DNA of 64,000 nucleotides from Deltaproteobacteria bacterium HGW-Deltaproteobacteria-14 (GCA_002841945.1 PHBI01000047.1:5421-69420); one strand, 5' to 3'; shown: positions 3,341-32,738, numbered from the stretch's first letter. A program made the numbers and translations. The notes: generated by a model not told the origin, from the letters alone.

Positions 3341-3404
3341 TGGGAACTGGGTCCGGCTTCGGCAAAAAATCACGAGCTCTGAGGGGTCGCTTCAAATCGT
3401 GACC

Positions 3405-3504: not shown

Positions 3505-6500
3505 ATGCGCCACCGCACGCTCGTCGCACTCGCGCTCCCGATGCTCGCCGCGGTCGTCGCGGGCGGCTGTGACTCGGCCACCTCCGCGCCCGCCGACACG
3601 AGCGGCGCCGCCGACACCGCCGCCCCGGACACCGCCGCCCCGGACGCCGTCGATCCGAGCCCGGGCCTCGGCGTCGACTACACGGCGACCGCCCCCGGCG
3701 CCACGCCCCGCTTCGCCCCCGACGCGCCCGACTGGATGGCGGTCGGCTGGCCCAGCGACCGCTACCTGCGGGACGGCCACCTCGATCTGTCCGCCTTTCG
3801 GGGGCTGAGCGGCGGGCTCTTCGAGACCTACCTCGACCTCGGCGAGCAGGTCCTCGACGGCTTCGGCCTCAACGGCGCCGTCTACTTCGAGCTCGACGGC
3901 GCCCTCGACGCCGCCACCCTGCCGACGCCGGAGGCGACGATGGGCGAGGCGGGCTACGTCCAGCTCGTCAACGCGACCGTCGGCAGCCCCCGCTTCGGCG
4001 AGCGCGTCCCGCTGCTCTTTCGCTGGTACGGCGGCGGCGCGGACGTCTACTACCGCGCGCACACCCTCGCCATGCGCCCGGTCTACGGCTTCCCCCTGGC
4101 CGAGCACGAGACCTACTGCGCCGTCGTGACCCGCGCGGTGCAGGACGCCGACGGGCGCTACCTGCAGGTCGCCCCCGCCTTCCTCGCCGCCCTCGCCGCC
4201 GACCCGGCGCTCGCGCCGCTGCGCGCCTGGCTCCCGACGAGCCCGCTGCGCGCCGATGATCTCGCGGTCGCGACCTGCTTCACCACCGCCGCGCCGACCG
4301 ACGAGCTGCGCCGCATCAGCGCCTGGATCACCGCCCACGACGCCCCCGAGGTCGACACCGTGAGCGAGCCCGGCGTCTTCGGCGAGCTCCAGGGGCTCTA
4401 CACCGCTCCCAACTTCCAGTCCGGCGCGAAGCCCTACGACAGCGACGGAGACGGCGCGATCCTGTTCGACGACGCCGGCGACCCCATCGTCCAGGAGCAG
4501 GAGCAGCTGCGCTTCTTGATGCTGTTGCCGCGGGACCGTCCGATGCCCGCCGGGGGCTGGCCGACGGTCATCTACGCCCACGGCACCGGGGGCGACTACG
4601 AGTCGTGCCGCGGCGTCTCCGGCGAGCTCAACGCCAGCGGCCTCGCCGCGCTGTGCATCGACGAGCCCCTCCACGGCCCGCGCGGGCCCGAGCTCGACTA
4701 CAACGGCCTCGTGCTCTTCAGCTTCAACTTCATCAACCCCGCCGCCGGCCGCTCCGCGTTTCGTCAGGCGGCCATCGACGTCCTCACGCTGTCGCACATG
4801 GTGGCCGCGGGCCGCTTCGACCTCCCGGCCGAGCGGGTGACCACCGGCGACCCGGTCCGCCTCGACCCCGATCGCATCTACTTCTTCGGGCACTCCCACG
4901 GCGGGCTCTCGGGCGCGCTCGCCTTCGCCGTCGACCCGCGCATCCGCGGCGGGATCCTCTCCGGGACCGCCGGCGTCCTGGTCGAGACGATCCTGCGGCG
5001 CAAGGACCCGGCCGACCTGGCCGCCCTGGTGCAAGGGCTCCTCGGTGTGGCGCCCGGCGACCTCGACAGCTTCCACCCCGCCATGACCCTCGTCCAGATG
5101 CTCGTGGACGAGACCGACCCCATCAACTACGGCCCTTACTGGCTCCACCCGGGCCCGGGCGGGCGGGCCAAGCACGTGCTGCTCACCGAGGGCACCGAGG
5201 ACGCCGACTCCCCCTCGGTCGGCACCGACGCCCTCGGCGCCGCCGCCGGCCTGCCGCTCGTCCTCCCGCTGGCCAAGGACAGCCCGGCCCACCGCCTGCG
5301 CGGGCTCGCGACGCTGACCCTGCCGGTCGCGCTGAACGCCCTCGCCCCCGACGGCCCGAGGACGGCGGCGATGAAGCAGTACCAGCACGGGACGCACTTC
5401 GTGGCCTTCGACGACCCCGAGGCTCGGGCGCTGTGGAACGAGCTCTTCCGCACCTTCGCGGCCGACGAGCCCCCGACCATCGGCCTCGGCGCTGCCGCCG
5501 TCCCCGCGCCGGCCACCACCTCCGCCGGGGACGCCTGTGACGACGTCCCCGCCATCGACGCCGCCGCCCTGCCGCTCGAGCTCCGCGGCAACACCTCGCT
5601 GGCCGGCGCCGACCTCGCGAGCGCCGGCGCGACCTGCGGCGACCGCGGCGCCGACGGCCGCGACCTGACCTGGCGCTTCACCGCGCCCGCGGACGGCCGC
5701 TATCGCTTCGCGCTGAGCCTCCCGCCGGCCATCGACGCGGACACGCCGCGCCTCGGGCCGGACCTGCTCTACCTCCTCGGCGCCGACTGCGACGCGGCGG
5801 GCTGCGTGGCCGCGCGCGCCGGCAGCGGCGCCCTCGACGTCGACCTCACCGGCGGCGACACCTACACCGTCGTCGTCGACGGCTCGGGCTGGGAGGCCAA
5901 GGGCCCCTTCGGGCTCACCGTCAGCCAGCGCTGTGCAGTGCAGGAGTGCGGGGAGCGCGAGTGCGGCGTCGTCGGCTGCGGAAGCTGCGGTGAATGCGGG
6001 AGCGGGTCATATTGCGATGCAGAAGGAAAGTGCCAGTCCGCCGGCCCCGGGGACACCTGCGCCGACCCCATCGAGGTCGCCGCGCTGCCCTTCACCCACA
6101 CCGGCGACACCGGGCGCTTTCATCACGACTACAGCTACACCGTGACCGACTGCCCGACCTTCCCGTTCCGCTTCGGCGCCGCCTCATCGGACGTCGTCTT
6201 TCACTTCACGGCGCCCAGCGCGGGGGTCTACACCGCCGCGCTGGCGCCCGGCTTCGACGGCAACCTGTTCGCCGTCACCGACTGCGCCGACATCGGCCAC
6301 AGCTGCCTCGGCGCCATCCGCAACGCCTACGGCGACGAGCGCCTGGCGCTGGCGCTGGGCGCCGGTGAGGGGGTCTTCGTCATCGCCCAGGGGGCCTTCA
6401 ACAACTCGAACCTGACCGGCCCGTACACGTTCCGGCTGACGAGCTGCGTGCCCGACTGCGCCGGCAAGAGCTGCGGGGACGACGGCTGCGGTGGCTCGTG

Positions 6501-8016
6501 CGGCCCGTGCGCGGCGACCGACAGCTGCGTCGAGGCGACGCGCTGCGGGCCCATCCCGAGCCTCTGCGAGCGCTCCGGCGCGTGCGAGGAGCTGCCGGGC
6601 AACACCTGCGCCTCCGCCATCCCGGTGGGCGCCCTCCCGTTCAGTGACAGCCGGGACACGGCGGACTTCACCAGCGAGTATGGCTACGGCGCCGGCTGGT
6701 GCCCGGGGGTCGACGCGACGTGGGGGTTCGCCGCGGCCGACGTCGCGTACGCGTTCACCGCGCCCACAGGAGGCCTCTATCGCTTCCAGCTCGCCACCGG
6801 CAGCGGGCTCGGGGCGTTCGACGCCAACCTCTACCTCGTCACCGACTGCGACGACGTGCGCGGCAGCTGCCTCGCCGCCGACGAGCGAGACCGGGACGAG
6901 CGCCTGTGGCGGCAGTTCTCCGCCGGCGAGAGCGCCTACCTCGTGGTCGACGGCTGGTCGAACGCGACGCCGCAGACGGGGAGCTACACGCTCAGTGTGT
7001 CGCAGTGCACACCGACGTGTGAGGACCGCGAGTGTGGGGGCGATGGCTGCATCGGGAGCTGCGGGGCGTGCGGCGCCAAGCAGGCCTGCAGCCAGGGGCG
7101 CTGCGTCGACGCCTTCGGCCTGCGCTGCGGCCAAGAGCGCGGGGTCGGCACCCTCCCGTGGAGCCACACGGACGACACCTCCAGCTGGGAGGACCGCGAG
7201 ACGAACACCTGCCCCGGCGCGCCGCCGAGCGGGGACGGGTCCAACGACGTCACCTATCAGTTCAAGGCGCCCAAGGCGGCCACGTACACGTTCCAGCTCG
7301 AGGCCGCGTTCGACGCGCAGCTCTACCTCGCCTCCGACTGCGCGGACGTTGCCGGGACGTGCCTCGCGACCGGGGGCAGCGTCCACCAGGTCGCGCTCGC
7401 CAAGGACGAGCTCGTCCGCGTCATCGTCGACGGCGCCCCGAGCGGCGGGGTCGCCAACGGCGGCTACACGCTGCGGGTGTCCGAGGCGTGCTCTCCCCGG
7501 TGCGACGGTCGCGCGTGCGGCGCCGATGGCTGTGGCGGGAGCTGTGGCGCGTGCCCGGCGCCGGCGGACATCTGCACCGGCGTCGGGGCCTGCCTCGACC
7601 CCACGAGCCTCGCGGGAAACACCTGCGAGGTCCCGTTCGCCATCGGTGCGCCGCCGTTCTCGGGCTCGGGGGACACGCGCGCGGCGTACAACCACTACGA
7701 CGTCCCGGCGAACGGGTGCGCTGGCTGGGTGCGCAAGGGGACCGGCTCGGCGGAGCAGGTCTGGCGGTTCACCGCGCCGGCGGCCGGGGACTATCGGATC
7801 GGCGTCGCGCCGGACGGCTGGGACGCGTTCGTGTACGTCGTCGCGGACTGCGCGGACCTCGGCGGGAGCTGCCTCGCGGCCTCGGATGGGCAGCGGGACG
7901 AGGCGCTTCGGGTGACCCTCGGCGCGGGCCAGGCGGTGTTCGTCGTGGTCGACGGTGAGGACGACGTCGTCGACGACGCGGGCGCGTATTCTCTGACGGT
8001 GACGCTGGCCCCCTGA
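3505..8016 (+). CDS. Secreted/lipoprotein alpha/beta-hydrolase (lipase/esterase-like GHSHGG nucleophile elbow) followed by 5 tandem modules of a Cys-rich knot (CxxxECGxxxCGxSCGxC) plus a pre-peptidase C-terminal (PPC)-like domain
   Basis: ATG 3505 gives MRHRTLVALALPMLAAVVAGGCDS (lipobox). The FFGHSHGGLSGALA motif is present. Five repeats each end in ...DCxDxxxSCLAA. GC3 is high throughout except one AT-rich patch at 6001-6050. Confidence 0.75.
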   Translation: MRHRTLVALALPMLAAVVAGGCDSATSAPADTSGAADTAAPDTAAPDAVDPSPGLGVDYTATAPGATPRFAPDAPDWMAVGWPSDRYLRDGHLDLSAFRGLSGGLFETYLDLGEQVLDGFGLNGAVYFELDGALDAATLPTPEATMGEAGYVQLVNATVGSPRFGERVPLLFRWYGGGADVYYRAHTLAMRPVYGFPLAEHETYCAVVTRAVQDADGRYLQVAPAFLAALAADPALAPLRAWLPTSPLRADDLAVATCFTTAAPTDELRRISAWITAHDAPEVDTVSEPGVFGELQGLYTAPNFQSGAKPYDSDGDGAILFDDAGDPIVQEQEQLRFLMLLPRDRPMPAGGWPTVIYAHGTGGDYESCRGVSGELNASGLAALCIDEPLHGPRGPELDYNGLVLFSFNFINPAAGRSAFRQAAIDVLTLSHMVAAGRFDLPAERVTTGDPVRLDPDRIYFFGHSHGGLSGALAFAVDPRIRGGILSGTAGVLVETILRRKDPADLAALVQGLLGVAPGDLDSFHPAMTLVQMLVDETDPINYGPYWLHPGPGGRAKHVLLTEGTEDADSPSVGTDALGAAAGLPLVLPLAKDSPAHRLRGLATLTLPVALNALAPDGPRTAAMKQYQHGTHFVAFDDPEARALWNELFRTFAADEPPTIGLGAAAVPAPATTSAGDACDDVPAIDAAALPLELRGNTSLAGADLASAGATCGDRGADGRDLTWRFTAPADGRYRFALSLPPAIDADTPRLGPDLLYLLGADCDAAGCVAARAGSGALDVDLTGGDTYTVVVDGSGWEAKGPFGLTVSQRCAVQECGERECGVVGCGSCGECGSGSYCDAEGKCQSAGPGDTCADPIEVAALPFTHTGDTGRFHHDYSYTVTDCPTFPFRFGAASSDVVFHFTAPSAGVYTAALAPGFDGNLFAVTDCADIGHSCLGAIRNAYGDERLALALGAGEGVFVIAQGAFNNSNLTGPYTFRLTSCVPDCAGKSCGDDGCGGSCGPCAATDSCVEATRCGPIPSLCERSGACEELPGNTCASAIPVGALPFSDSRDTADFTSEYGYGAGWCPGVDATWGFAAADVAYAFTAPTGGLYRFQLATGSGLGAFDANLYLVTDCDDVRGSCLAADERDRDERLWRQFSAGESAYLVVDGWSNATPQTGSYTLSVSQCTPTCEDRECGGDGCIGSCGACGAKQACSQGRCVDAFGLRCGQERGVGTLPWSHTDDTSSWEDRETNTCPGAPPSGDGSNDVTYQFKAPKAATYTFQLEAAFDAQLYLASDCADVAGTCLATGGSVHQVALAKDELVRVIVDGAPSGGVANGGYTLRVSEACSPRCDGRACGADGCGGSCGACPAPADICTGVGACLDPTSLAGNTCEVPFAIGAPPFSGSGDTRAAYNHYDVPANGCAGWVRKGTGSAEQVWRFTAPAAGDYRIGVAPDGWDAFVYVVADCADLGGSCLAASDGQRDEALRVTLGAGQAVFVVVDGEDDVVDDAGAYSLTVTLAP

Positions 8017-12214: not shown

Positions 12215-15200
12215 ATGACCAAGCACCTGCACATCCACCGCTCGAACCGCGTCGAGGAGCTCGTGGCCGCCCTGGCCGCCATGCCCCCGGCCCTCGGCGA
12301 TCCGTTCGCCACGGAGCGGATCGCGGTCCAGAGCCGGGGGATAGAGGCGTGGCTCACGATGCGCTTGGCGGAGCACCGCGGGATCGCCGCCAACCTCGAG
12401 TTCACCTCACCCGACCGCCTCGTGGCGGCGGCCGTCGCCGGCGCCCTCGGTGACCGCGCCGACGCCACCGACGCGTGGGCTCCGGGGCGCCTCCGCTGGC
12501 GCGTCCTCGCGGCGCTCCCCGAGCACCTCGACCACCCCGCCCTCGGGACCCTGCGGCGCTACCTCGAGCAGCGCGACGGTGCCCCGCCCGAGCGGCGGCG
12601 CGTCACCCTGGCGACCCGGGTCGCCGAGGTGTTTCATCGCTACACCATCTACCGCCCGGACGTGGTCGCCGCCTGGGAGCGGGGGGAGGACGACGGCACC
12701 TGGCAGCCGCTGCTGTGGCGAGCGCTGGCGGCGGGGGTGCCCACTCGGCACCTCGGCCACCGCCTCGCGGCCTTCGTCGCCGCCGTGGACGCCGACGGGG
12801 AGGGCGCGCTGACCGGGGTGACCGGTCGGGTCGTGGTGTTCGGCGTCAACACCCTCCCGCCCCGCTACGTCGAGGCGCTCGGGGCCATCGCGCGCCACCG
12901 CGAGGTCCACCTCTTCTTGCCCTGCGCCTCGGCCGCCGGGCGCGAGCAGGACCGCCTCGTCGCCGCGGGCGAGAACCCACGCTTCCGAAACCCGCTGCTC
13001 GCCTCCTTCGATCGCCTCGGGAGCGACCTGCAGCGCCTCCTCGACGGGCTCGGCGGGCGACCGCGCTACCACGACCGCTTCGTCGCCCCGGGGGCCGAGA
13101 CCGCCCTCGCTGCACTGCAAGAAGACGTGCTCCTGCTGCGCGATCGCGGGGCGCCGAGCGCGCATCCTGAGAAAGACAAGCGACCTGAACCACTCGTGAT
13201 GGATGGCGAAGATCGCTCGGTGCAGGTCCATGTCTGCCATGGTGCAATGCGGCAGGTCGAGGTCCTCAGGGACACCCTGCTCGGCCTCTTCGCGGGGGAC
13301 GCGTCCCTCGAGCCGCGCGACGTCGTGGTCCTCACGCCCGACATCGACACCTTCGCGCCGCTGATCCACGCCGTGTTCGCCGACGGGGACTCCCCCGAAG
13401 GGGAGCGCGGCTTTCCGGCGCTGCACCAGGTCCACGACCTGAGCCTGCAGCGGGCGAACCCGTGGGCGGAGGCCTTCCTCGAGCTCCTCGATCTCGCGAC
13501 CGGGCGGCTGAAGGCGAGCACGGTGTTCGCGTTCCTGGCGCTGCCGCCCGTGCTCGACACCATCGGGATCGGCGCCGACGAGCTGGCGAAGGCGCGCACC
13601 TGGCTCGCGCAGGCGGGGGCGCGGTGGGGGCGCGACGCCGCGGACCGGGCGCGCCACGGGCAGCCCGAGGACCCGCTCCACACCTGGCGCTTCGCCTTCG
13701 AGCGGCTCCTGCTCGGGCACGCCCTGGCCAACGACGGCTTCCAGCGCTTCGCGGGGGTGAGCCCCTACGACGACATCGAGGGCAAGGACGCGCTGATCGC
13801 CGGGCAGGTCATCGACTACCTCGAGCGCCTCTTCGACACCCTCGACACCCTGCGCGAGCCGCGCACCCTGTCGGCGTGGCGCGATCGCTGCGCGGCGCTC
13901 GTCGCCGACCTCCTGGTCCACGACGACGACTCCGCCGGGCGGGCCAAGGCGATCCTCGACGTGCTCAACGACCTCGTCGCCGGGGCGGCGGACGCCGGCT
14001 ACGACGACCCGGTCGAGGTCGAGGCGCTCCGCGCGCTGCTCGACGCGCCGTTCAACGCGCGCCGGACCGCCGTGACCTTCCTGTCGGGGGGGATGACCTT
14101 CTGCACCATGGTGCCGATGCGCAGCCTGCCTTTCCGGGTCGTCTGCCTGCTCGGGATGGACGACAGCAGCTTCCCGCGCGGCGGCGCGGGGTTGGGCTTC
14201 GACCGGACGCGGATCGACGAGGCCCGAGTCGGCGACCGCGACGACCGCGCCGATGACCGTCAGGCCTTCCTCGAGACGCTGCTCTCGGCCCGCGATCACC
14301 TCGTGGTGACCTACAGCGGCCGGAGCCTCGGCGACAACCAGCAGACCCCACCGTGCGTGCCGCTGGCCGAGCTGCTGGCCGTGCTCGAGCGCGGGTTCCG
14401 AGGCGCCTGGCGCACCGAGCACCCGCTGTCGCCGTTCAGCCCGGCCAACTTCGGGGTCGGCGCCGACGGGGCCTCGCGGGAGGCGCTGTCCTTTGACCGG
14501 CGCTTCCTCGCCGGCGCGCGCCGGCTCCGCGGGCCCCGGGTCTCTCCGGCGCCGTTCTGCGACGGCACCCCGGTGCCGGCGCCCGCCGCGGGCGTGGTCC
14601 AGCTCACGGCCCTCGTGGCCTTCTTCAAGGACCCCACCGCCGCGTTCCTCAAGCAGCGCCTCGACGTCTCCCTCGACGAGCGCGACGACGAGATCGCCGA
14701 CCAGGCGCCGCTCGCGATGGACGGGCTCGGGCGCTGGGCGCTCGGCCGCGACCTGGTGCGCTGGCGCCTGCGCGGCGCTAGCGACGAGGAGGCGCGGGCG
14801 GCGGTGCTCGCGGATGGGCGCCTGCCGTCCGGCGCCCTGGCGCGCGCGCGGCTCGACGAGGTCGATCCGAAGGCGCGTCGCATCGCGCGCCGCGTCGCGG
14901 GGTTGCGCATGGGGGCGCGGCGGGTGGTGCCGATCGCGGTCGAGCTCGACGGCGTCGAGCTGCGCGGTCGCGTCGACGACGTGTTCGACCGGGGCCGCGT
15001 GGCCTTTCACCCCACCTCGGCCCGGGTGAAGCACCTGCTCGACGTCTGGATCCATCACCTCGCCCTCGGCGCCGTCGACGCCCTGCCGGACCAGTCGCAC
15101 CTGGTGGCCAGCAACGGGGTCTTCTCCTTCGCCAGGATCTCGCCAGAGCGCGCTCGCGACCTGCTCGGGCGGCTCGTCGCGCTCTACCGGCGGGGGATGA

Positions 15201-15457
15201 TGGCGCCGCTCCCGTTCGCGCCCGAGACCTCGGACGCTTGGCTGTGGGCGCGGCGCGGGAACAAGGGACCCGAGGCCTGCCGCTTCGAGGCGAAGAAGGC
15301 CTGGGTCACGTACTTCAGCAAGCGCGGCGAGGACGCCTCGCCCTCGGCGGCCCGCGTCTGGGGGGAGGAGCTGCTCTTCGAACACCCGGACTTCCCCGAG
15401 GTGTCGGCGGCGGTGCTCGAGCCGCTGCACGCCGCGAAGTCGAAGGTGCCGCTGTGA
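12215..15457 (+). CDS. recC: Exodeoxyribonuclease V gamma subunit RecC
   Basis: 1080 aa. N-terminus MTKHLHIHRSNRVEELVAAL is RecC-like. Followed by recB and recD with overlapping starts. Contains an AT-rich codon patch at 13160-13245. Confidence 0.85.
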   Translation: MTKHLHIHRSNRVEELVAALAAMPPALGDPFATERIAVQSRGIEAWLTMRLAEHRGIAANLEFTSPDRLVAAAVAGALGDRADATDAWAPGRLRWRVLAALPEHLDHPALGTLRRYLEQRDGAPPERRRVTLATRVAEVFHRYTIYRPDVVAAWERGEDDGTWQPLLWRALAAGVPTRHLGHRLAAFVAAVDADGEGALTGVTGRVVVFGVNTLPPRYVEALGAIARHREVHLFLPCASAAGREQDRLVAAGENPRFRNPLLASFDRLGSDLQRLLDGLGGRPRYHDRFVAPGAETALAALQEDVLLLRDRGAPSAHPEKDKRPEPLVMDGEDRSVQVHVCHGAMRQVEVLRDTLLGLFAGDASLEPRDVVVLTPDIDTFAPLIHAVFADGDSPEGERGFPALHQVHDLSLQRANPWAEAFLELLDLATGRLKASTVFAFLALPPVLDTIGIGADELAKARTWLAQAGARWGRDAADRARHGQPEDPLHTWRFAFERLLLGHALANDGFQRFAGVSPYDDIEGKDALIAGQVIDYLERLFDTLDTLREPRTLSAWRDRCAALVADLLVHDDDSAGRAKAILDVLNDLVAGAADAGYDDPVEVEALRALLDAPFNARRTAVTFLSGGMTFCTMVPMRSLPFRVVCLLGMDDSSFPRGGAGLGFDRTRIDEARVGDRDDRADDRQAFLETLLSARDHLVVTYSGRSLGDNQQTPPCVPLAELLAVLERGFRGAWRTEHPLSPFSPANFGVGADGASREALSFDRRFLAGARRLRGPRVSPAPFCDGTPVPAPAAGVVQLTALVAFFKDPTAAFLKQRLDVSLDERDDEIADQAPLAMDGLGRWALGRDLVRWRLRGASDEEARAAVLADGRLPSGALARARLDEVDPKARRIARRVAGLRMGARRVVPIAVELDGVELRGRVDDVFDRGRVAFHPTSARVKHLLDVWIHHLALGAVDALPDQSHLVASNGVFSFARISPERARDLLGRLVALYRRGMMAPLPFAPETSDAWLWARRGNKGPEACRFEAKKAWVTYFSKRGEDASPSAARVWGEELLFEHPDFPEVSAAVLEPLHAAKSKVPL

Positions 15458-18400
15458 GCGCCACCCGTGAGAGCGGGAGCCCGAGCTCCCGCCCCTTCGA
15501 CCCGCTCGGCCCCCTCGCGACCGGGGGCGTGCTGCTCGAGGCGAGCGCCGGGACCGGCAAGACGTGGAGCATCACGAGCCTCGTCCTGCGGCTCGTCGTC
15601 GAGGAGGACGTGCGCATCGAGAACGTCCTCGCGGTGACCTTCACCAACGCGGCGACCGCGGAGCTGCGGGCGCGCGTCTGGGACCGGCTCGACGAGGCGC
15701 TGCGGACGGTCGAGAGCTACTGGCGAGAGGATCCGAAGCCGGCGCCGGACGACGTGATCGGGCGGCTCGTCACGCTGGCGACCGGGGGGCTCGGCTTCGC
15801 CATCGTGCTCGGCCGCCTGCGCGCGGCGCTCGAGGGCTTCGACCGCGCGCAGATCTGGACGATCCACGGCTTCTGCCAGCGGATGCTGCAGCAGAACGCG
15901 CTCGCGAGCGGGGTCGCCTTCGACACCACCCTGGTCGAGGACGAGCGTGCGCTGGTCCGAGAGGTCGTCGAGGACTTCTGGCAGCGGGAGCTCTACGCGG
16001 CGACGCCGGCGACGCTGGCGCTGCTGACCGGCGTGGGCCTCGACCTCGACCGCGCGGTGAGCCTCGGCGACCTCGCGATCCGCCACCCCGACGCCGAGGT
16101 CGTGCCGGCCGAACCCGAGGCGCTGCCCCCCCCGGCGATGCCGAAGACGACGGCGGCGCGCGCCGCCCTCGAGCGGTTCTGGTGGAAGGACCGTCGCCGG
16201 GCGGTCGCCATCATCAAACAGGCGGCCGAGCAGGGCCTCTTGCACCGCCGCTTCCCCGTGGCCGAGCTCGACGGCGTCATGGACGTGGGCGACGCCGTCG
16301 TCCGCGGGGCGCTGGACCGGACGAGCTTCTTCAAGCTCCGCGTCCTCGACGGCGCGCGCCTCGCGAAGTCCATGGCCTCTGGCGGCGCCCCCCTCCGACA
16401 CCCGCTGTTCGACCTCGTGAGCGCCCTGCGCGCCGCCTGGATCGAGGAGATGCCGACGGCGGCCGACTACCTGCTGTCCTTTCGCTACCGCCTCATCGCG
16501 GAGGTGCGGGCGGCCGTCCGCCGGCGGCGCGAGGCCAGCGCCCAACGCTCCTTCGACGATCTCCTGCGGCTCTTGCGCGAGGCCCTCGAGGCGCCTGGCA
16601 CCGGCGCCGAGCTGGCCGCCTCCATCCGCAAGCAGTTCCGCGCGGTGCTCATCGACGAGTTCCAGGACACCGATCCGGTCCAGTGGGCGATCTTCGATGG
16701 CCTCTTCGTCGCACAGCCGCGGCACTGGCTCTACCTGATCGGGGATCCCAAGCAGGCGATCTATCGCTTTCGCGGCGCCGACATCGACACCTACCTCGCC
16801 GCCAAACGCGCCCTCGGCGGCCGCATCGAGACCCTCGCGCGGAGCTATCGAAGCGACGCGCGCCTCGTCCAGGCCCAGAACGTGCTGTTCGACACCGGCC
16901 CGGCCGCCTTCGCGACCCGGGGCATCGACTACGAGCGGGTCGCCGCCCAGCACGCTGACCGCGCCGAGGGGATCGGCGCCCCTCTGAGGCTCCTCTTTGT
17001 GCGTCGCAACAGGCACCGAGAGATCGACGCCAAGTGGCGCGACAACGAGCTCCCACGGCGGGTCGCCGCGGACATCGCTTCGCTCTTGCACAAGGGCGGG
17101 ACGCTGCGCGCGAAGGCGAGCGACGAGCCGCGCCCGGTGCGCCCGCGGGACTGCGCGGTGCTGGTGCGCACCAACCGCCAGGCGACGGCGATCCAGGACG
17201 CGCTCCGCGACGTCGGCGTCCCGAGCGTGCTCCACGGACCCGACAGCGTGTTCGGGACCGTGGAGGCGCAGGAGCTCGAGCGGCTGCTCGCGGCGATCCT
17301 CGAGCCCGCCCGCACCCGGCTCGCGCGGACGGCGCTGGCGACCGGGCTCCTCGGCGGGACCGCCGTGACGATCGCGGAGGCGGCGGCGGATCCCCAGCGC
17401 TGGGAGGCGTGGGTCGGCGAGCTCCGCGGGTGGCTGCGAGGGTGGCAGGAGCGTGGGGTCGTGCATCTGCTGCGGACCCTGGTCGCGGGCCGCCTCTCGG
17501 GGGTGCTCGCCCGGGTCGATGGCGAGCGCTGCATGGCGAACCTGCTGCACCTGACCGAGCTGCTCCACAACGCGGAGGTCGGCCTCGGGCTCGACCCGGC
17601 CGGGGTCCTCGAGTGGCTCCGGCGGGCGCGGCGAGACGCTGACGATGATGACGCGAGCGCGGCGCTGCGGCTCGAGAGCGACGCCGAGGCGGTCGAGATC
17701 GTCACCATCCACAAGAGCAAGGGGCTCGAGTACCCGCTGGTGTGGTGTCCATATCTGGGGTTGCCGGACAGCGGGCGCACACCACCGGCCTATCTCCACT
17801 TCCGCGACCCCGGGGATGACCACGGCGAGAAGCTCGACGTGGCCCCGGAGCGCCGCGAGTGGGCAGGTCACCAGCAGCTGGTGAGCTACGAGCTCGCCGC
17901 TGAGGGCCTGCGGCTCCTCTACGTCGCGCTGACCCGCGCCAAGCATCAGGTGACGGTCTGGTGGGGGGGCTTTCGGGACGCCCATCGCTCGCCGCTCTGG
18001 TACGCGCTCCACCGGGGCGCCGCGGAGGTCTTTGACGCGGAGGCGCTCGAGCGGTTTCGTGAGCGCACGGTCCGCGACGTCACCGATGACCAGCTGCTCG
18101 CCGAGCTGAGCACCCTCGCGACCCGCTCCGAGCACACGATCGCGGTGGTCGAGGACCTCCCGCGCGAGGTGCCTCGATACGAGGTGATCGCGCACAGCGA
18201 CGTGACCCTCGCGCCCCTCCGCTACGACCGGGCGACCCCGATCGAGAACGGGTGGCGCCGGACGAGCTTCACCGGGCTGACGCGCCACGTCGACTACCAC
18301 GTCGAGACGGCCCAGGCGGCCGAGGACGAGACGGCGCTCGAGGTCGACGAGGGCTCGAGCTCGCTCGCGGAGCTGGCGGTGACGCCGGTGACCTCGGTCC

Positions 18401-19296
18401 CCCTCGCGGACCTCCCGGGCGGGCGCGGGACCGGCAACTTCCTCCACGAGGTGCTCGAGCACGTGGACTTCCAGGGCAGCGCGGAGGCCCTGCGCGCGCT
18501 CGTGGTCGAGCGCCTCCCACGGCACGGCATCGACGAGGGGTGGGCGGAGCTGGTGACCGTCGGGCTCGGCGCCGCGCTGGGAACCCCGCTCCACGCCGGC
18601 GAGGGCGCCCCGTGCCTGGCCGATCTGCCGACCTCGCGGCGGCTCAACGAGCTCGGCTTCACCTTCCCCCTCGCCCACGGGGGGGGGACTGGAGCCGGGC
18701 GCGCGAGGCCGCGGCCGCTGTCGCCGGAGCGCCTCGCGGAGGTCTTCGCGCGCCACCCGGAGCCCGGGGTGCCGCGGGGCTGGATCGAGCGCCTCCGGGC
18801 GCTGTCGTTCCTACCGGCCCGGGGCTTCGTGACCGGCGCCATCGATCTCGTCTTCGAGGGTGAGGACGGTCGCTTCTACGTCGTCGACTACAAGTCGAAC
18901 CACCTCGGCGCGCGCCCGGCGGACTACGACACGGTGGGGATGGAGCGCGCGATGGCCGCGCACCACTACTTCCTCCAGTACCACCTCTACACGGTCGCGG
19001 CGGTGCGGTACCTGCGCACGCGGATCCCGGACTTCGCCTACGAGCGCCACTTCGGGGGCGTCTACTACCTGTTTCTGCGCGGCATGGCGCCGGGCCACCC
19101 GGCGGGCACCGGGGTGTTCGCCGCGACCCCGCCCGAGTCGCTGATCGCCGACCTGTCGGACGCCCTCGATGGACTCGTATCGGTCGCGGACCTACGTCCT
19201 CCGCGGCCGAGCGGCGCGGCCACGGTGGCTCCCACCGGGTCGCCAGGTACGGACTCCGGTCCACGACCCGCCGTGCCCGGGGGGGGCGAGCGATGA
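15454..19296 (+). CDS. recB: Exodeoxyribonuclease V beta subunit RecB (UvrD-type helicase + PD-(D/E)xK nuclease)
   Basis: GTG 15454 overlaps the recC stop (GTGA). Walker A LLEASAGTGKTW. C-terminal nuclease motif IDLVFEGEDGRFYVVDYKSN. The last ~35 aa are encoded by the dispersed repeat. Confidence 0.9.
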   Translation: MSATRESGSPSSRPFDPLGPLATGGVLLEASAGTGKTWSITSLVLRLVVEEDVRIENVLAVTFTNAATAELRARVWDRLDEALRTVESYWREDPKPAPDDVIGRLVTLATGGLGFAIVLGRLRAALEGFDRAQIWTIHGFCQRMLQQNALASGVAFDTTLVEDERALVREVVEDFWQRELYAATPATLALLTGVGLDLDRAVSLGDLAIRHPDAEVVPAEPEALPPPAMPKTTAARAALERFWWKDRRRAVAIIKQAAEQGLLHRRFPVAELDGVMDVGDAVVRGALDRTSFFKLRVLDGARLAKSMASGGAPLRHPLFDLVSALRAAWIEEMPTAADYLLSFRYRLIAEVRAAVRRRREASAQRSFDDLLRLLREALEAPGTGAELAASIRKQFRAVLIDEFQDTDPVQWAIFDGLFVAQPRHWLYLIGDPKQAIYRFRGADIDTYLAAKRALGGRIETLARSYRSDARLVQAQNVLFDTGPAAFATRGIDYERVAAQHADRAEGIGAPLRLLFVRRNRHREIDAKWRDNELPRRVAADIASLLHKGGTLRAKASDEPRPVRPRDCAVLVRTNRQATAIQDALRDVGVPSVLHGPDSVFGTVEAQELERLLAAILEPARTRLARTALATGLLGGTAVTIAEAAADPQRWEAWVGELRGWLRGWQERGVVHLLRTLVAGRLSGVLARVDGERCMANLLHLTELLHNAEVGLGLDPAGVLEWLRRARRDADDDDASAALRLESDAEAVEIVTIHKSKGLEYPLVWCPYLGLPDSGRTPPAYLHFRDPGDDHGEKLDVAPERREWAGHQQLVSYELAAEGLRLLYVALTRAKHQVTVWWGGFRDAHRSPLWYALHRGAAEVFDAEALERFRERTVRDVTDDQLLAELSTLATRSEHTIAVVEDLPREVPRYEVIAHSDVTLAPLRYDRATPIENGWRRTSFTGLTRHVDYHVETAQAAEDETALEVDEGSSSLAELAVTPVTSVPLADLPGGRGTGNFLHEVLEHVDFQGSAEALRALVVERLPRHGIDEGWAELVTVGLGAALGTPLHAGEGAPCLADLPTSRRLNELGFTFPLAHGGGTGAGRARPRPLSPERLAEVFARHPEPGVPRGWIERLRALSFLPARGFVTGAIDLVFEGEDGRFYVVDYKSNHLGARPADYDTVGMERAMAAHHYFLQYHLYTVAAVRYLRTRIPDFAYERHFGGVYYLFLRGMAPGHPAGTGVFAATPPESLIADLSDALDGLVSVADLRPPRPSGAATVAPTGSPGTDSGPRPAVPGGGER
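19171..19275 (+). repeat. Copy A of the ~100-bp dispersed repeat, occupying the 3' end of recB
   Basis: Aligns with 32592-32695 (same strand) and 3241-3340 (inverted). Confidence 0.7.
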
Positions 19297-21083
19297 GCGC
19301 GCTCGACGCCTTCGTGGCGGCGCGGATCCTCGACCCGCTGGCGGTGCAGTTCGCGCGCGCGATGGCGCGGCTCGTCGCCGAGCCCCCGGCGGACGCGGTG
19401 CTGCTCGGGCTGGCCGCGGCCAGCGCGGCGGTCAACCGCGGGCACGTCTGCTGCGCGCTCGCAGACGCCGCGTCGCTCTTGCCGCCGGACGTCGAGGGGG
19501 TCGGGGAGGCCGAGGTCGAGCCCCCCGCCTGGCCGGAGCTCGAGGCGTGGCGTGACGCGCTCGCGGCGAGCCCGCTCGTCGCCCTCGCGAGCGTAGCCGT
19601 GACGTCGTCGGCGCCCCTGGTCCTCGACGGCGAGCGCCTCTACCTCCACCGCTACTGGGAGTACGAGCGACGGCTCGCGGGGGCGCTGGCGAGGAGGGCG
19701 CGCGGCCTGGCCCCGGTGGTCGACGTGGCGCGGCTCGGCGCGGCCCTGGAGCGGCTCTTCCCGAGCCGCGGCGACGAGCCCGATCTGCAGCGCGAGGCTG
19801 CGCGGCGGGCGGTCGAGCGGCGTCTGGCCATCATCACCGGGGGGCCTGGCACCGGGAAGACGTCGACGGTGGTGCGGGTGCTCGCGGCGATCCTCGACCA
19901 GGCGCCCCACGCCCGGATCCAGCTCCTCGCGCCGACCGGCAAGGCGGCGGTGCGGATGAGCGAGGCGGTTCGGGAGGCCAAAGAGGACCGCGAGCGGCTC
20001 GACATCTCGGACGAGGTGCGCGCGCGCATCCCCGAGGAGGCGTCCACCATCCACCGCGCGCTCGGGTATCAGCCCGGCAGCCCCACGCGCTTCTTCCATG
20101 GCGAGGACTACCCGTTGCTCGCCGACGTCGTGGTCGTGGACGAGGCCTCGATGGTCGATCTCTCGCTGATGGCCAAGCTGGTGCTCGCCGTGCGCGAGGA
20201 CGCGCGGCTCGTGCTGCTGGGCGACAAGGACCAGCTCGCGAGTGTCGAGGCGGGCTATGTGCTCGGCGAGCTGTGCAAGAGCGACGTGCTGGCGCCGTGC
20301 CGGGTCGAGCTGCTCAAGAGCCACCGCTTCGACGGCGAGGGGGGGATCGGCTCCCTCGCCCGGGCCATCAACGCCGGAGACGCCGCCCGCACCTTGGAGA
20401 TCCTGCGGGACCCGGGCCAGCCCGAGGTGGTCCTGGTCGAGCCAGCCGCCCTCCTCGGCGACCTCGAAGCGCAGCTCCGGGACCTCGTGCTGCCGCACCT
20501 GCGCGCCCGGGTCCGCGCGTCGCGCTCACCCTCGGAGGCGCTCGCCGCCCTGGGCCGCTTTCAGGTGCTGACCGCGCACCGTCGCGGTCGCTTCGGGGCC
20601 GCGCTGTTGAACCAGGTGGCCGAGCGCTGGCTCGCCGCGTCCGGCGACGTCGTCCCCCACGACGCGGGCTACGCGGGCCAGCCGATCGTGGTGACCGTCA
20701 ACGATCGCGTGCTCCAGCTCTTCAACGGCGACACCGGGGTCGTGCTGCCGGACGCTGAGGGCCGGCTGCGGGCCTACCTCCCCGACACCCGCGACGGCGG
20801 GATCCGGAGCCTGACCCCGGCGCAGCTCCCCCCACACGAGACGTTCTACGCCACGACGGTCCACAAGGGGCAAGGGTCCGGCTATGACGAGGTGGTCGTG
20901 GTGCTGCCCACCGATCCCTCTCCCGTCGTGACCCGCGAGCTCCTCTACACCGCGGTCACTCGCGCGCGCCGAAAGGTGACGCTGGTCGGCACCGAGGCCG
21001 TGATGCGCCACGCGGTAGGGAGCCGCATCCTTCGTGCCTCCGGGCTGGCGGTCGCCCTCGGCCGCGATGGTGCTCTGGGGTGA
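19293..21083 (+). CDS. recD: Exodeoxyribonuclease V alpha subunit RecD
   Basis: ATGA overlap with the recB stop. Walker A ITGGPGTGKTST and Walker B VVVDEASMVD. C-terminus TTVHKGQGSGYDEVVVVLP...TAVTRARRKVTLVG. Confidence 0.9.
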   Translation: MSALDAFVAARILDPLAVQFARAMARLVAEPPADAVLLGLAAASAAVNRGHVCCALADAASLLPPDVEGVGEAEVEPPAWPELEAWRDALAASPLVALASVAVTSSAPLVLDGERLYLHRYWEYERRLAGALARRARGLAPVVDVARLGAALERLFPSRGDEPDLQREAARRAVERRLAIITGGPGTGKTSTVVRVLAAILDQAPHARIQLLAPTGKAAVRMSEAVREAKEDRERLDISDEVRARIPEEASTIHRALGYQPGSPTRFFHGEDYPLLADVVVVDEASMVDLSLMAKLVLAVREDARLVLLGDKDQLASVEAGYVLGELCKSDVLAPCRVELLKSHRFDGEGGIGSLARAINAGDAARTLEILRDPGQPEVVLVEPAALLGDLEAQLRDLVLPHLRARVRASRSPSEALAALGRFQVLTAHRRGRFGAALLNQVAERWLAASGDVVPHDAGYAGQPIVVTVNDRVLQLFNGDTGVVLPDAEGRLRAYLPDTRDGGIRSLTPAQLPPHETFYATTVHKGQGSGYDEVVVVLPTDPSPVVTRELLYTAVTRARRKVTLVGTEAVMRHAVGSRILRASGLAVALGRDGALG

Positions 21084-28768: not shown

Positions 28769-31074
28769 CTTCACGCCTGCTCCGCGGCGCGCTCGCCGCC
28801 GCGCTCTGCCTCGTCGCCACCCCGGCCCTGTCGGCCGGCTGGGCCACGGCGCCCGTCGGCCCGCTGCGCACCGCCTACACCCGGGTCGACGCCGTCATCG
28901 ACGGCGACACGGCGCGCACCACCGTCACCCAGGTCTTCGTCAACGACCTCGAGACCCCGGTCGAGGTGACCTACCGCTTCCCGCTGCCCGAGGACGCCAG
29001 CGTCACCGGCTTCGCCGACTGGCGCGACGGCCGCCGCCTCGAGGCGACCGTCGCCGGCAAGGAGGACGCCCGCGACGCCTACGAGGAGGCCGCCGCCGAG
29101 GGTCGCCCCGCCGCGCTGGCCGAGAAGGAGGCCAACGCCCGCTTCGTGATGCGGCTGTCGACGGTGCCCCCCCGGGGCGCCCGCCGGGTCGAGCTCACCT
29201 ACGTCCAGACGCTCTCGGCCCTCGGGGGCGAGCGCACCTGGGTCTTCCCGGCCGAGCGCGCCGGCGACGTCCCGCCGCCGACCGTCCTCGACGTCGACGT
29301 CACCCTCCGCAACGAGTCGCCGATCAAGGCCGTGCAGTCCCTCAACCACGGCGACGCCCGCGTCATCCCGCAGCGGGACGGCTCACGCCACGTGGCGCTG
29401 AGTCGCACCGGCGGCGGCCTCGGCTACGATCTCGTGCTGCGCTGGCGCGTCGAGACCGAGGCCATCGACCTGGCCGCCCGCGCCGTCCGCCCCGACGCCG
29501 ACCAGCCCGGCTACGTCGAGGCGCGCCTCAGCTTCGCGAGCGACCCCTACGACGCCCTGCGCCCGCCCCAGGACGTCGTCATCGTCCTCGACCGCTCGCT
29601 CTCGATGGCCGGCGCGCCCCTCGAGCGCGGCCGCGCCCTGGTCGAGGGGATCCTGGCCGAGCTCGCCCCCGAGGACCGCTTCTCCCTCATCACCTTCAAC
29701 GCCGGCGTGACCCCCATCGTCGGCGACCTCGCGCCGGCCGACGACGCCAACATCGACCTCGCCCAGGCCGGCCTCGACGACGTCCGCGCCGCCGGACGCT
29801 CCGATCTCCAGGCCGCCCTCGACGTCGCCGCCCACGTCCTGCGCGCGAGCAGCGCCGGGACGCTGGTCCTCGTGACCGACGGTCAGCCGACCGCCGGCGC
29901 CGGCTACACCCGCCTGCCGCTCGCCGCGGACCTCGCCGACTGGGTCGACCACCGCGTGGTCGTCGCCCACGCCAGCTACCCGTCGCGTCAGCCGGTCCTC
30001 GAGCAGCTCTTCCCCCAGGTCACCGTGCGCTACGTCCCCGACGGTGACGCCGGCGTCGACGCCATCGAGTCCCTCATCCGCCTCGTCGTCGCCCCGACCA
30101 TCGAGGACCTCTCGGTCGACCTCGACGGCGCCAACGTCTTCGCCCTCGAGGGCAAGGTCCCGGCGCGCCTCGCCGTCGGCGAGTACCTCCGTCTCCTCGC
30201 CCGCGCCGAGTCCGACGTCGTCGTGCGCGTCAGCGGCACGCTCCACGGCCGCCCGGTCCGCCTCGAGCGCGAGGTCGTGCTCCCCGCTGGCCCCGACGCG
30301 CGCGGCGACCGCGGCCTGCCGGTCGAGTGGGCGCGCCTGCGCGTGGCCGGCCTCGAGGCGCGCTTCGACGGCGCGGCCTACGACGAGCAGGAGGCCATCG
30401 AGGCGGAGATCCGGTCGCTCGGCGCCGCCTACCGCCTCGCCACGCGCTTCACGAGCTACGTCCTCACCGACTCCCTCGCCCCCGACCGCATCATGCCTGG
30501 CGACCCCGAGATCCGCGTCCACGCGCCCGCAACGGCGCTCGGCGTCCGCGCCGTCCTGCCGTGGGGCGAGGTCGTCGACTGTCACTGGCAGCAGGACGAG
30601 CAGCTCTGGCTCGGCCGCTTCCTCGTCCCCCGCGGCACTCCGGACGGGATGTACCGGATGCGGGTCTTCGTCGACGGGCAGGAGGGGACCGAGCTCCGCG
30701 GCACGCTCTTCTTCCGCGTCGACTCCGAGCCGCCGGAGTTCGAGCTGCTGATCGAGGGCGACGCGACCGTCGCCATGGCCGACACCCTGCGCGTCATCGC
30801 CCGCCCCAAGGACGGCGTGTACGAGGGCGAGGCGCTGCGGACGGTCGGCGACACCGTCGTCCGCGACAAGGTCGACCTCAAGCGCATCGTCGTGCAGCTC
30901 GGCGACCGCGAGTACCCGCTGACCCAGGTCGGCGACGGCGAGCTGTGGGCCGCCGACGTCCCCGTCGCCGTCGCGGCCGGGCGGCACGTCCTCAAGCTCG
31001 TGGCCGTGGACTACGCGCTCAACAGCACCGAGGCCACCCTCGCCATCGACGTCCACGCGGAGCGCACGCCGTGA
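28765..31074 (+). CDS. Secreted VIT (vault/inter-alpha-trypsin) + vWA domain protein
   Basis: ATGA overlap with the preceding gene. Signal peptide MTSRLLRGALAAALCLVATPALSA. VIT-like N-terminus (VEVTYRFPLPEDASVTGF). vWA motif VVIVLDRSLSMAG...LVTDGQPT. Confidence 0.75.
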   Translation: MTSRLLRGALAAALCLVATPALSAGWATAPVGPLRTAYTRVDAVIDGDTARTTVTQVFVNDLETPVEVTYRFPLPEDASVTGFADWRDGRRLEATVAGKEDARDAYEEAAAEGRPAALAEKEANARFVMRLSTVPPRGARRVELTYVQTLSALGGERTWVFPAERAGDVPPPTVLDVDVTLRNESPIKAVQSLNHGDARVIPQRDGSRHVALSRTGGGLGYDLVLRWRVETEAIDLAARAVRPDADQPGYVEARLSFASDPYDALRPPQDVVIVLDRSLSMAGAPLERGRALVEGILAELAPEDRFSLITFNAGVTPIVGDLAPADDANIDLAQAGLDDVRAAGRSDLQAALDVAAHVLRASSAGTLVLVTDGQPTAGAGYTRLPLAADLADWVDHRVVVAHASYPSRQPVLEQLFPQVTVRYVPDGDAGVDAIESLIRLVVAPTIEDLSVDLDGANVFALEGKVPARLAVGEYLRLLARAESDVVVRVSGTLHGRPVRLEREVVLPAGPDARGDRGLPVEWARLRVAGLEARFDGAAYDEQEAIEAEIRSLGAAYRLATRFTSYVLTDSLAPDRIMPGDPEIRVHAPATALGVRAVLPWGEVVDCHWQQDEQLWLGRFLVPRGTPDGMYRMRVFVDGQEGTELRGTLFFRVDSEPPEFELLIEGDATVAMADTLRVIARPKDGVYEGEALRTVGDTVVRDKVDLKRIVVQLGDREYPLTQVGDGELWAADVPVAVAAGRHVLKLVAVDYALNSTEATLAIDVHAERTP

Positions 31075-32738
31075 TCACCTGGCTCGCCGCCCTGCTGCTG
31101 ACCGCCGCCGTGGGCCCGCCCCCGGCGGCGACCCCGACCGCGCCTGGCGCCTGCCCGGTCCCCGAGGGGCCGGTCAGGGCGCGGACCGTCCTCGCCGACG
31201 GGACCGCGGTGGTCGCCCGCGACGGCGCCCTGCAGCTCGCGGACCGGCTCGTCACCGCCTGCGACGGGCTGCCCGATCCCTTCCCCATCAGCGTCGCCGC
31301 CTTCGAGGGCGAGCTGTGGGTGGGTTTCAGGGCGGCGGGCCTCTACCGCTTCGACGGGCACAGCTTCAGCCGCGCCGAGGGCCTCCCGGCGGACGCGGTC
31401 CGCGCGCTCGCCGCCGGGCCGGACGCCCTCTGGATCGGCACCGGCAAGAGCGGCCTGTGGCGCCTCAGCCGCGACGGCGCGCTCGCTCGCTTCGACCACC
31501 GCGTCCTCGGCCAGCAGGAGGTCTCGGCGCTGCTCCTCGACCGCAAGGGGGACCTCCAGGTCGGCGCCGGCATGTACGGCTGGTGGCGTGTGCGCCGCAA
31601 CAAGGCCACGCGCATCCAACGCAATATCTATGTCGGCTGCTTTGCTGCGATGCACGGCAAGGCGGTGCCGCTCTCCCCGGGCCCCGAGTGCGACCTCGGC
31701 GCCGCGACCTCGGCGTCCGGGCTGCCCTCGAGCCACGTCGCCGCGCTGACCTGGCACCGCGGGCGGCTCTACGTCGGGACCTTCGACCGCGGGCTGGCGG
31801 TGCAGGGCGCTGACGGGCGCTTCGCGGGCGTCGCCGGCGCGCCGCCCTTCGTCAACGCGCTGGTGTCCGACGGCGACACCCTGTGGATCGGGACCGCCAA
31901 GGGGCTCTGGCGGGCTCGCGGAGACGCCGCACCTCAGGCGACGCCCCTCGGGCTGCCCTCGGAGCACATCACCGGGCTCGCCGTCGCCCCCGACGGGACG
32001 CTGTGGCTCGCGACCGGACAGGGGCTCGCCGCGCGGGAGCCGGGCGGGCGGGTGCGCGTCCTCGGCGTGGCGGCCGGCCTGCCGTCGCGGCTCGTCTACG
32101 CCGTGGCGGTCGCCGAGGATGGCGCGGTCTGGGCCGGCACGGCCGGCGGCGCCGCCCGCTTCGGCTCCGAAGGCGTCCGGGTCTACACCCAGGTGAGCGG
32201 CGCCCTGACCCACGACTGGGTCAACGCGCTGCTGCCCGACGGCGACGACGGCGGCGTCCTCGCCGGCACCTACGACGCAGGCGTGGTGCGCCTGACCCCC
32301 GACGGGCACGGGGTGCCCCTCGCCGGGCTCGAGCACCTGTGGGTGAACCCCGGTGGGCTCACGCGGATCGGCTCCGGCGCGCTCGCGGTCGCGACCCTCG
32401 GAGACGGCCTCGCGATCGTGAACGCCGACGGCGGGAGGCTCGTCCGGGGCCTCCCGTCGGACGACGTGACGAGCGTGGTCCCGGCGGCGGAGGGGCTGTG
32501 GGTCGGCACCCGCGGCGGCCTGGTGCGGATCGGTTTCGCCACCGCCGGGCCCGCTTCGCGTCGGCCGGGGGGACCCTTTGGGGTGCGAAACGGTGTCGTA
32601 TCGGGCGCGGACCTGCGTCCGCCGCGGCCGACCGGCGGGGCCGCGGCGTGTCCCGACCGGTCGCGAGCTCCGGACTCCGGTCCGCGGCCTGCCGTTTCAG
32701 ACGCGACGCGACCTTGTGATAGCGTCGCTCCGCCATGA
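31071..32738 (+). CDS. Secreted two-component-regulator propeller (Reg_prop/Y_Y_Y-like) repeat protein with no kinase domain
   Basis: GTG 31071 overlaps the upstream stop (GTGA). Signal peptide. Repeated LWIGTxxGLxR / LWVGTxGGLVR blades. The last ~35 aa are encoded by the dispersed repeat. Confidence 0.65.
   Translation: MITWLAALLLTAAVGPPPAATPTAPGACPVPEGPVRARTVLADGTAVVARDGALQLADRLVTACDGLPDPFPISVAAFEGELWVGFRAAGLYRFDGHSFSRAEGLPADAVRALAAGPDALWIGTGKSGLWRLSRDGALARFDHRVLGQQEVSALLLDRKGDLQVGAGMYGWWRVRRNKATRIQRNIYVGCFAAMHGKAVPLSPGPECDLGAATSASGLPSSHVAALTWHRGRLYVGTFDRGLAVQGADGRFAGVAGAPPFVNALVSDGDTLWIGTAKGLWRARGDAAPQATPLGLPSEHITGLAVAPDGTLWLATGQGLAAREPGGRVRVLGVAAGLPSRLVYAVAVAEDGAVWAGTAGGAARFGSEGVRVYTQVSGALTHDWVNALLPDGDDGGVLAGTYDAGVVRLTPDGHGVPLAGLEHLWVNPGGLTRIGSGALAVATLGDGLAIVNADGGRLVRGLPSDDVTSVVPAAEGLWVGTRGGLVRIGFATAGPASRRPGGPFGVRNGVVSGADLRPPRPTGGAAACPDRSRAPDSGPRPAVSDATRPCDSVAPP
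32592..32695 (+). repeat. Copy B of the ~100-bp dispersed repeat at the 3' end of the propeller gene
   Basis: gtatcgggcgcggacctgcgtccgccgcggccg...ccggactccggtccgcggcctgcc, compared with copy A. Confidence 0.7.

Follow-up and report, generated by a model that had tools for sequence, protein, structure and literature searches.

A dispersed palindromic repeat at gene 3' ends of an uncultured deltaproteobacterium, probably a new REPIN- or RPE-like family

Introduction

How does one stretch of about 100 nucleotides (nt) come to lie at the ends of unrelated genes, and why is it translated in some of them as the last part of the protein? This question is raised by a 64,000-nt stretch of DNA from Deltaproteobacteria bacterium HGW-Deltaproteobacteria-14 (GCA_002841945.1, PHBI01000047.1:5421-69420), referred to here at its full length as the window. 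A preliminary description made from the sequence alone had noticed a repeat at the 3' ends of recB and of a gene for a propeller protein and, in inverted orientation, behind a lipoprotein gene. According to the analysis described here, the repeat probably represents a new family of palindromic elements comparable to REPINs or to Rickettsia palindromic elements (RPEs), which would be non-autonomous and mobile and survive only at permissive gene ends. The observations on which this reading is based are the repetition itself, a covarying hairpin, RecB relatives that lack the tail, codons resembling those of noncoding DNA, the occurrence in both orientations, and unrelated flanks.

Copies in the window

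With the borders of the element set from CGTATC at the 5' end to GCCGT at the 3' end, the three copies of the preliminary description were recovered with slightly corrected coordinates:

Copy A: 19176-19274, plus strand, core of 99 nt within recB, at its 3' end
Copy B: 32597-32695, plus strand, core of 99 nt within the propeller (Reg_prop) gene, at its 3' end
Copy C: 3235-3339, minus strand, 105-nt core, intergenic and in opposite orientation

A gap-free repeat search aligned copies A and B with 82% identity over 100 nt and 0 gaps (19175-19274 and 32596-32695). The first 35-36 nt of both copies pair with positions 3304-3339 of the opposite strand with 89-92% identity, and the 3' arm of copy C carries a 6-nt insertion. 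A degenerate 35-nt core, CGTATCGGNCGNNGACCTNCGTCCNCCGCGGCCGA, occurs three times in the window versus 0 times in 100 shuffles, and the window copies reach E-values of 1e-24 to 1e-25 with nhmmer, the profile HMM matching these three copies and no other site. A covariance model run with filters off scored them at 79-93 bits, while the runner-up in the window scored 17 bits; thus, the window contains exactly three copies. No further copy was found in about 15 kb of additional flank beyond the window, which amounts to 3 copies in the roughly 79 kb read altogether.

Copies at other loci

In JGI metagenomes, five further copies were found on four short contigs (L001-L004), all from sample Ga0210044. 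They are located at the nuoJ-nuoK junction, on the 3' side of a BamB-like gene, upstream of rpsT, and beside a kinase fragment. Their flanks are unrelated to those in the window, and the element is thus present at unrelated loci in two organisms. The 5'-arm pattern had 0 matches in 185,579 GTDB species genomes, among which the source genome is not included, and the element was not found in viral contigs and plasmids. In a comparison with Rfam 15, no part of the window except a tRNA attained the gathering score, and nothing relevant was found on the copies at E<=1-5. A looser gapped pattern retrieved 10 loci from the GTDB genomes, all of which were chance matches according to their nhmmer scores; in one case (L010), the codons for ASSADG...TDSG in a BNR/Asp-box repeat gene fit the pattern by chance. 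The recB/propeller locus itself recurs in three other metagenome assemblies in essentially identical form and represents the same strain.

These data bear on the simplest explanation, according to which local segmental duplication or gene conversion produced the three window copies. The presence of three copies within 79 kb and of none in public reference genomes would suit this explanation. However, the similarity does not continue past the borders of the element into the flanks, which are unrelated, and one window copy is inverted. Local duplication, which the preliminary description had named as the alternative to a dispersed element, is refuted by the five copies at other loci in Ga0210044 and has next to no probability left.

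Anatomy and folding of the repeat

Eight copies are known in total, and the seven full ones were aligned. The element consists of two conserved arms of 34 nt each, CGTATCGGTCGNNGACCTGCGTCCTCCGCGGCCG at the 5' side and CAGCTGCGGACTCCGGTCNNCGACCTGCCGT at the 3' side, both of which are invariant or nearly so. They enclose a spacer of 39-41 nt, the sequence of which is almost wholly different among copies. The outer ends are CGTATCGG (5') and CCTGCCGT (3') in 7/7 copies. Copies A, B, and L003 each have a length of 99 nt, L001 and L002 of 100 nt, and copy C of 105 nt.

The RNAalifold consensus predicts a single long imperfect hairpin with 34 pairs, in which the 5' arm pairs with the 3' arm. In this predicted structure, 88% of the pair cells are paired, versus 35-43% after a shift of the partners by 1-3 columns. 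Changes on both sides occur at nine pairs, and the covariation score of 0.216 (versus 0.09) is reached by 0 of 500 shuffles. The NN positions of the two arms covary exactly (AG/CT, AC/GT, GA/TC, CG/CG), and in C, L001, and L002 the stem extends outward via GAAGC/GCTTC-like pairs. The preliminary description had pictured two small GGAC-NNNN-GTCC hairpins as the conserved structure. These hairpins (GGAC-CTGC-GTCC and GGAC-TCCG-GTCC) are indeed able to form in A and B, as well as in L002, but the conserved structure is the long arm-to-arm hairpin: in L001, L003, and L004, the small hairpin of the 3' arm is disrupted, and the variable bases are instead paired with the opposite arm. The apices form subfamilies, with L001 resembling L004 and L002 resembling L003, which suggests copying from different masters.

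The unpaired nucleotides of the internal loops are invariant. In addition, the reverse strand is predicted to fold 8-15 kcal/mol better in 5/7 copies (totals of -468 versus -414 kcal/mol), and the reverse-strand alignment contains 11 G-U cells versus 3 A-C cells. With few and related copies, this is a weak hint that one particular single strand, either DNA or RNA, may be the constrained form. The two in-ORF (open reading frame) copies of the window, A and B, do not fold better than shuffles (z -1.3 to -2.4). An extended fold was predicted around copy C in the sense of the lipoprotein mRNA:

Extended hairpin around copy C: 3222-3362, plus strand, predicted fold of -75.9 kcal/mol, z -4.65

The UGA stop codon lies within the base of this hairpin, which is followed by an A-run and not by a U-run. 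The preliminary description had considered that the element could act as a coupling or terminator-attenuator module. Neither a U-tract nor a terminator consensus was found at any window copy; intrinsic terminators consisting of a GC-rich hairpin and a U-tract are absent from the three window copies on either strand, and no promoter-like consensus was found at any copy. By inspection, none of the 7 copies is flanked by direct repeats that would indicate a target-site duplication. Pairing is imperfect right up to the element ends, and sharp terminal inverted repeats are lacking.

Some copies are accompanied by a second repeated module, TCAGTTCTCCACCGCGCTGCGCGCGACCCACGGTCACGAAGCTGCGGCGC, which is located directly 5' of the element (L002 1520-1808, L001 1-270). 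In intergenic DNA of L002, module and element form an array of 159-nt tandem units, much as REPINs or BIMEs do in ordered clusters. The window lacks this module; in front of copies C and L004, a remnant (CAGTTC) is present.

The translated tail

The host genes of the window copies, together with recD as the gene following recB, are:

recB: 15454-19296, plus strand, 1280 aa; homology ends at ...ALDGL (19176), followed by 33 element codons, PGGGER and the stop
recD: 19293-21083, plus strand; its ATG overlaps the recB stop (ATGA)
Propeller (Reg_prop) gene: 31071-32738, plus strand; the ORF runs through copy B to ATGA at 32735-32738
Lipoprotein gene with DTQIAE repeats: 1673-3226, plus strand; its stop codon lies just before copy C

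Copy A is read as VSVADLRPPRP...DSGPRPAV (19177-19275, 33 aa, VSVADLRPPRPSGAATVAPTGSPGTDSGPRPAV), and copy B, in the same frame, as VVSGADLRPPRP...DSGPRPAV (32598-32696, 33 aa, VSGADLRPPRPTGGAAACPDRSRAPDSGPRPAV). This confirms in-frame C-terminal extensions at both plus-strand copies, with 33 aa each as the part contributed by the element. Independent gene calls on three other assemblies also place the element within the recB and propeller ORFs. In NCBI, the propeller protein is listed as hypothetical and assigned to this bacterium, an unclassified metagenome-assembled genome (MAG).

For RecB, the tail lies beyond the end of the conserved protein, as had been supposed. The sequence of the E. 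coli RecB structure aligns up to ALDGL, which corresponds to residue 1175 of 1180 and thus to a point 5 residues before its C-terminus. The tail is absent from 120/120 best RecB C-terminal relatives (<= ~55% identical), which end 0-25 residues after the ...ALSxxLxG helix; the nearest named relatives by score include a MAG of the Polyangiaceae. Removal of the 33 element codons from recB leaves ...ALDGL-PGGGER, an ordinary RecB end. Codon usage changes as well: the G+C content at third codon positions (GC3) is 0.94 in the recB body versus 0.70 in copy A, and 0.95 in the propeller body versus 0.76 in copy B. In recB, GC3 falls sharply from 1.0/0.9 to 0.55 exactly where the element begins. The decrease in nuoJ and in the propeller gene starts 15-20 codons before the element; in these two cases, the ORF may read through former spacer before it enters the element.

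All three in-ORF copies (A, B, and L003) comprise 99 nt or 33 codons and share the frame VSVxDLRPPRP. This agreement, with a chance of about 1 in 9 for the shared frame alone, would be in accordance with a protein module, namely a proline-rich C-terminal peptide common to RecB, the propeller protein, and NuoJ. The shared frame encodes the least charged peptide among the three forward frames, so that selection for a harmless tail would be sufficient to explain it. Several observations contradict a protein module: copy C lies outside any gene and is interrupted by a TAG in the reading frame of A and B, L004 is antisense to a real gene, and in the 100-nt copies L001 and L002 the two arms fall in different frames. 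The low GC3 values, the tail-less RecB relatives, and the covarying pairs, which are a signal of nucleic acids, point in the same direction. A profile of the frame-1 tail peptide yielded 7 word-sharing candidates among 5.8 billion proteins, none of which was significant, and an exhaustive hmmsearch with the tail profile against 1.84 billion representative proteins had 0 matches. With a six-frame concatenated peptide query, only two window proteins were among the matches listed, the rest being low-complexity noise. A protein module is thus very improbable. The repeat is a nucleotide-level element and not a protein domain, and its classification in the preliminary description as a dispersed repeat of the general kind of REPs and of miniature transposable elements with inverted repeats (MITEs) was correct in this respect.

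Position relative to stops and starts

The in-ORF copies are located in the last codons of genes in operons. Copy A lies 6 codons before the recB stop and ends 18 nt before the ATG of recD, with the G-rich ribosome-binding region of recD between copy A and this ATG. Copy B lies 13 codons before the stop of the propeller gene and ends 39 nt before the next ATG, in an operon (VWA / VIT-VWA / propeller / DUF2288) with a 4-nt overlap at every junction. The distance to the next start codon is therefore larger than the few nucleotides given in the preliminary description. In L003, 10 codons separate the copy from the stop of nuoJ, and this stop overlaps the GTG of nuoK. In all three cases (A, B, and L003), the stop/start overlap with the next gene is intact. 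Copy C begins 8 nt after the lipoprotein stop and lies between two independently called genes, copy L004 is in reverse orientation and begins about 2 nt after a stop, being antisense to and just downstream of the BamB-like gene, and the copies on L001 and L002 are intergenic. A stop codon is found within about 40 nt for 5/7 loci. With about 50 genes per 64 kb, only about 6% of all positions lie <=40 nt from a stop codon, and the clustering near stops is therefore real. It is predicted by both filtering through purifying selection and active targeting.

The position at gene ends would be part of the function if the repeat were a selected cis-acting RNA hairpin that provides protection against 3'-exonucleases, a processing site, or a means of tuning expression at gene junctions. 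Such effects on mRNA have been demonstrated for individual copies of REP, ERIC, and Correia elements. The stop codons close to five of the seven loci would agree with this, as would the covarying stems with invariant internal loops, the better folding of the reverse strand with its excess of G-U over A-C cells, and the stable mRNA-sense hairpin at copy C, which begins at the stop codon. However, both orientations relative to transcription occur, and sequence-specific loops therefore cannot match in all copies. The window in-ORF copies show no folding beyond that of shuffles, and neither a U-tract nor an Rfam family was found. Furthermore, single-strand DNA transposition predicts the same strand asymmetry, and the 11:3 count is not independent evidence because the copies are few and related. 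Taken together, a selected RNA hairpin appears unlikely, although it is the strongest competitor.

Somewhat more doubtful is an active, strand-specific module that is either targeted to DNA close to stop codons by a single-strand recombinase or retained as a setter of mRNA fate. The invariant internal loops, the hypervariable yet always paired apex, and the 99-nt stop-free design may be regarded as grounds for such a module. It may adopt the stabler orientation in 3' untranslated regions and a weaker one in the last codons within operons, where it would be melted by ribosomes and translational coupling would be kept.

A location at gene 3' ends is also typical of attC-type recombination sites of integrons, which act as single-stranded hairpins with a variable center at the 3' ends of cassettes. 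The element resembles them as an imperfect palindrome of about 100 nt with conserved ends, a variable paired center, and strand asymmetry. However, RYYYAAC/GTTRRRY cores are absent from its ends, the ...CCCAAC and GTTGCTT of copy C being a chance resemblance. In addition, the neighbors are housekeeping operons (recBCD, nuo, and the VWA operon) instead of cassettes, the copies are spaced by 13-16 kb, and an integrase was not found in the window or its flanks. An attC-type site is accordingly a far-fetched explanation.

Comparison with known repeat families

REPINs are defined by conserved ends and a less conserved spacer, with length and hairpin capacity being important and compensatory changes being common; ordered tandem clusters and an alternative 'clover' fold with two small hairpins have also been described (PMC3116915). 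In Pseudomonas fluorescens SBW25 and other RAYT-carrying genomes, they have the same layout as the element described here, with inverted ends and a paired spacer of fixed length that form a long hairpin. The 'clover' fold is also possible in this element (GGAC-NNNN-GTCC), some of its copies also occur in ordered tandem clusters, and neither REPINs nor this element make a target duplication. In contrast to REPINs, the arm hairpins comprise just 4 bp and are missing from some copies, several copies lie within ORFs while REPINs are described as extragenic, and the host is an uncultured deltaproteobacterium with 72% GC. REPINs further have arms that are each a REP, a stable short palindrome in its own right, they number tens to hundreds per genome, and their genomes contain a cognate RAYT (Y1/HUH transposase) gene, which the repeats usually flank.

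REPs are mostly located <20 bp from the 3' ends of ORFs, with a minority inside ORFs encoding 20-30 aa, and DNA repair genes including recBCD are recurrent REP hosts, as exemplified by recB of Xanthomonas (PMC3733652, Di Nocera et al. 2013). The GTAG/CGTC tag of the REP superfamilies (PMC3733652) is absent from the ends of 7/7 full copies, and the element is therefore not placed in the RAYT-linked REP families. While GTAG/CGTC REPs are tagged palindromes of 20-40 bp or dimers thereof, this element is untagged, comprises 99-105 nt, and has no sequence relationship to them.

RPE-1 and related RPEs are the classic case of in-frame insertion (PMC10969869, citing Ogata et al. 2000/2002). RPEs share with the present element a length of about 100-150 bp, a palindromic structure, the in-frame location in unrelated housekeeping genes, one preferred frame, and a tolerated peptide. 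RPEs occupy internal surface loops as well as termini and belong to AT-rich reduced genomes; in contrast, all in-ORF copies of this element lie within the last 50 codons. The element also has extragenic copies, and the match with RPEs is one of behavior only, with no homology claimed and no similarity in sequence to be expected. The preliminary description had called the behavior of the repeat unusual; in fact, REPs near 3' ends and inside recBCD have been published (PMC3733652), and the same holds for the in-frame RPEs (PMC10969869).

Enterobacterial ERIC/IRU and neisserial Correia elements are imperfect palindromes of about 100-150 bp that are co-transcribed, sometimes intragenic, and can have orientation-dependent effects on mRNA stability. 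The element shows no similarity to these families, and it lacks a duplication, in contrast to Correia elements with their defined terminal inverted repeats and TA duplication. A classical MITE, which derives by deletion from a DDE insertion sequence and has terminal inverted repeats and a target-site duplication, was rejected because there are no flanking direct repeats and the ends are imperfectly paired. The element is accordingly filed as a new family that works like REPINs or RPEs and is not assigned to any named family. A repeat that is read through at gene ends is already known from other bacteria and is not of a new kind; specific here are the lineage of the host, ends without known tags, the 99-nt stop-free unit, and the preserved stop/start overlaps.

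Proposed mode of spread

In the favored reading, which we consider probable, the two inverted arms and the paired variable spacer would fold together, in RNA or in DNA that is single-stranded, into one hairpin about 100 nt long. In this form, the element would spread, or would formerly have spread, as a non-autonomous mobile element, and the 'mobile insertion tolerated only there' of the preliminary description thus remains the best-fitting interpretation, with mobility itself as an inferred property. Because target-site duplications and sharp terminal inverted repeats are lacking, the mobilizing enzyme would be of the single-strand HUH/Y1 type (RAYT or IS200/IS605-like) and encoded elsewhere in the genome. 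Persisting copies would be those in permissive sites, either just past stop codons or in dispensable last codons. A stop-free unit of 99 nt (33 codons) inserted into the last codons would keep the frame and the stop/start overlap with the next gene, and the host protein would then carry a proline/arginine-rich insert of 33 residues in its tail.

Several points weigh against this reading. Among the genes of the 79 kb, there is no relevant transposase, and Y1_Tnp was found neither in the gene calls nor in the Pfam hits. Compensatory changes in DNA palindromes can also arise from template switching without selection. The invariant loop nucleotides and the better folding of the reverse strand would also fit a selected RNA function, and the missing GTAG/CGTC tag is unfavorable as well. 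The four assemblies of the locus showed neither an empty site nor an excision product, and they do not differ in the presence or absence of the element. Finally, with eight copies, the copy number per genome and the bias toward 3' ends are poorly sampled.

The only mobile genes nearby are unrelated to the element:

Group II intron maturase-domain gene fragment (GIIM only): L024 2456-3382, some 7 kb to the left of the window
IS21 (istA/istB): L020 17610-19896, about 3 kb right of the window

A link between the element and IS21, the only insertion sequence in the DNA read, was rejected, as the 22.7-bit match within istA is at chance level. A function as guide RNA in the manner of bridge RNAs or IS605-like elements was also rejected because words shared between apex and flank are no longer than in shuffles.

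Other features of the window and related contigs

Downstream of copy B, the DUF2288 gene is frameshifted in the window, with Arg-rich junk after ...ELRPHAAR. The Logan assembly of this locus (L018) has 68 extra bases at 32822/32823, and the ENA contig ends exactly there; the MAG contig was probably joined wrongly at this position. In recC, the JGI assembly and the window differ by a 6-nt GCGCCC indel (14579-14584), an in-frame strain polymorphism.

The window contains further repeats. The DTQIAE repeats, which belong to the N-terminal part of the lipoprotein, are encoded by six tandem 18-nt units (1850-1987). Four repeat copies about 500 nt apart (6250-7882) encode (F/W)D..LY.V.DC.D...C motifs in a 1523-aa secreted protein with a weak PPC-domain match. 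A 221-nt direct repeat with 79% identity (49503-50081) is located at two adjacent Bac_DNA_binding (HU-like) genes (~49590-50137, minus strand). Apart from a tRNA-Thr (CGT) at 42059-42134 on the minus strand, no RNA gene was found in the window.

On L003, the NuoI-like ferredoxin subunit encoded upstream of nuoJ (46-555) has an Ala/Lys/Glu-rich C-terminal extension of about 110 aa, which is another unusual tail in the nuoJ operon. On L004, a 479-aa ORF (17-1456, plus strand) starts within the element (MVSSGIVSVGDLRPPRP...) and continues in antisense across the real BamB-like gene.

Implications

For annotation, the repeat means that RecB, the propeller protein, and NuoJ each carry about 33 spurious-looking residues. 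As stop codons are very rare in a genome of this kind, almost any insertion near a gene end would be read through, and a stop-free repeat can seed long false ORFs in high-GC DNA, such as the antisense ORF on L004. To our knowledge, no such repeat family has been described in this deltaproteobacterial lineage. The finding opens no new category, but it widens the occurrence of REPIN/RPE-like 'coding palindromes' to include a lineage of the Deltaproteobacteria that is high in GC, uncultured, and probably myxobacterial. A complete genome would provide a small system for distinguishing targeting from filtering at gene ends and for finding the enzyme that moves repeats without GTAG tags.

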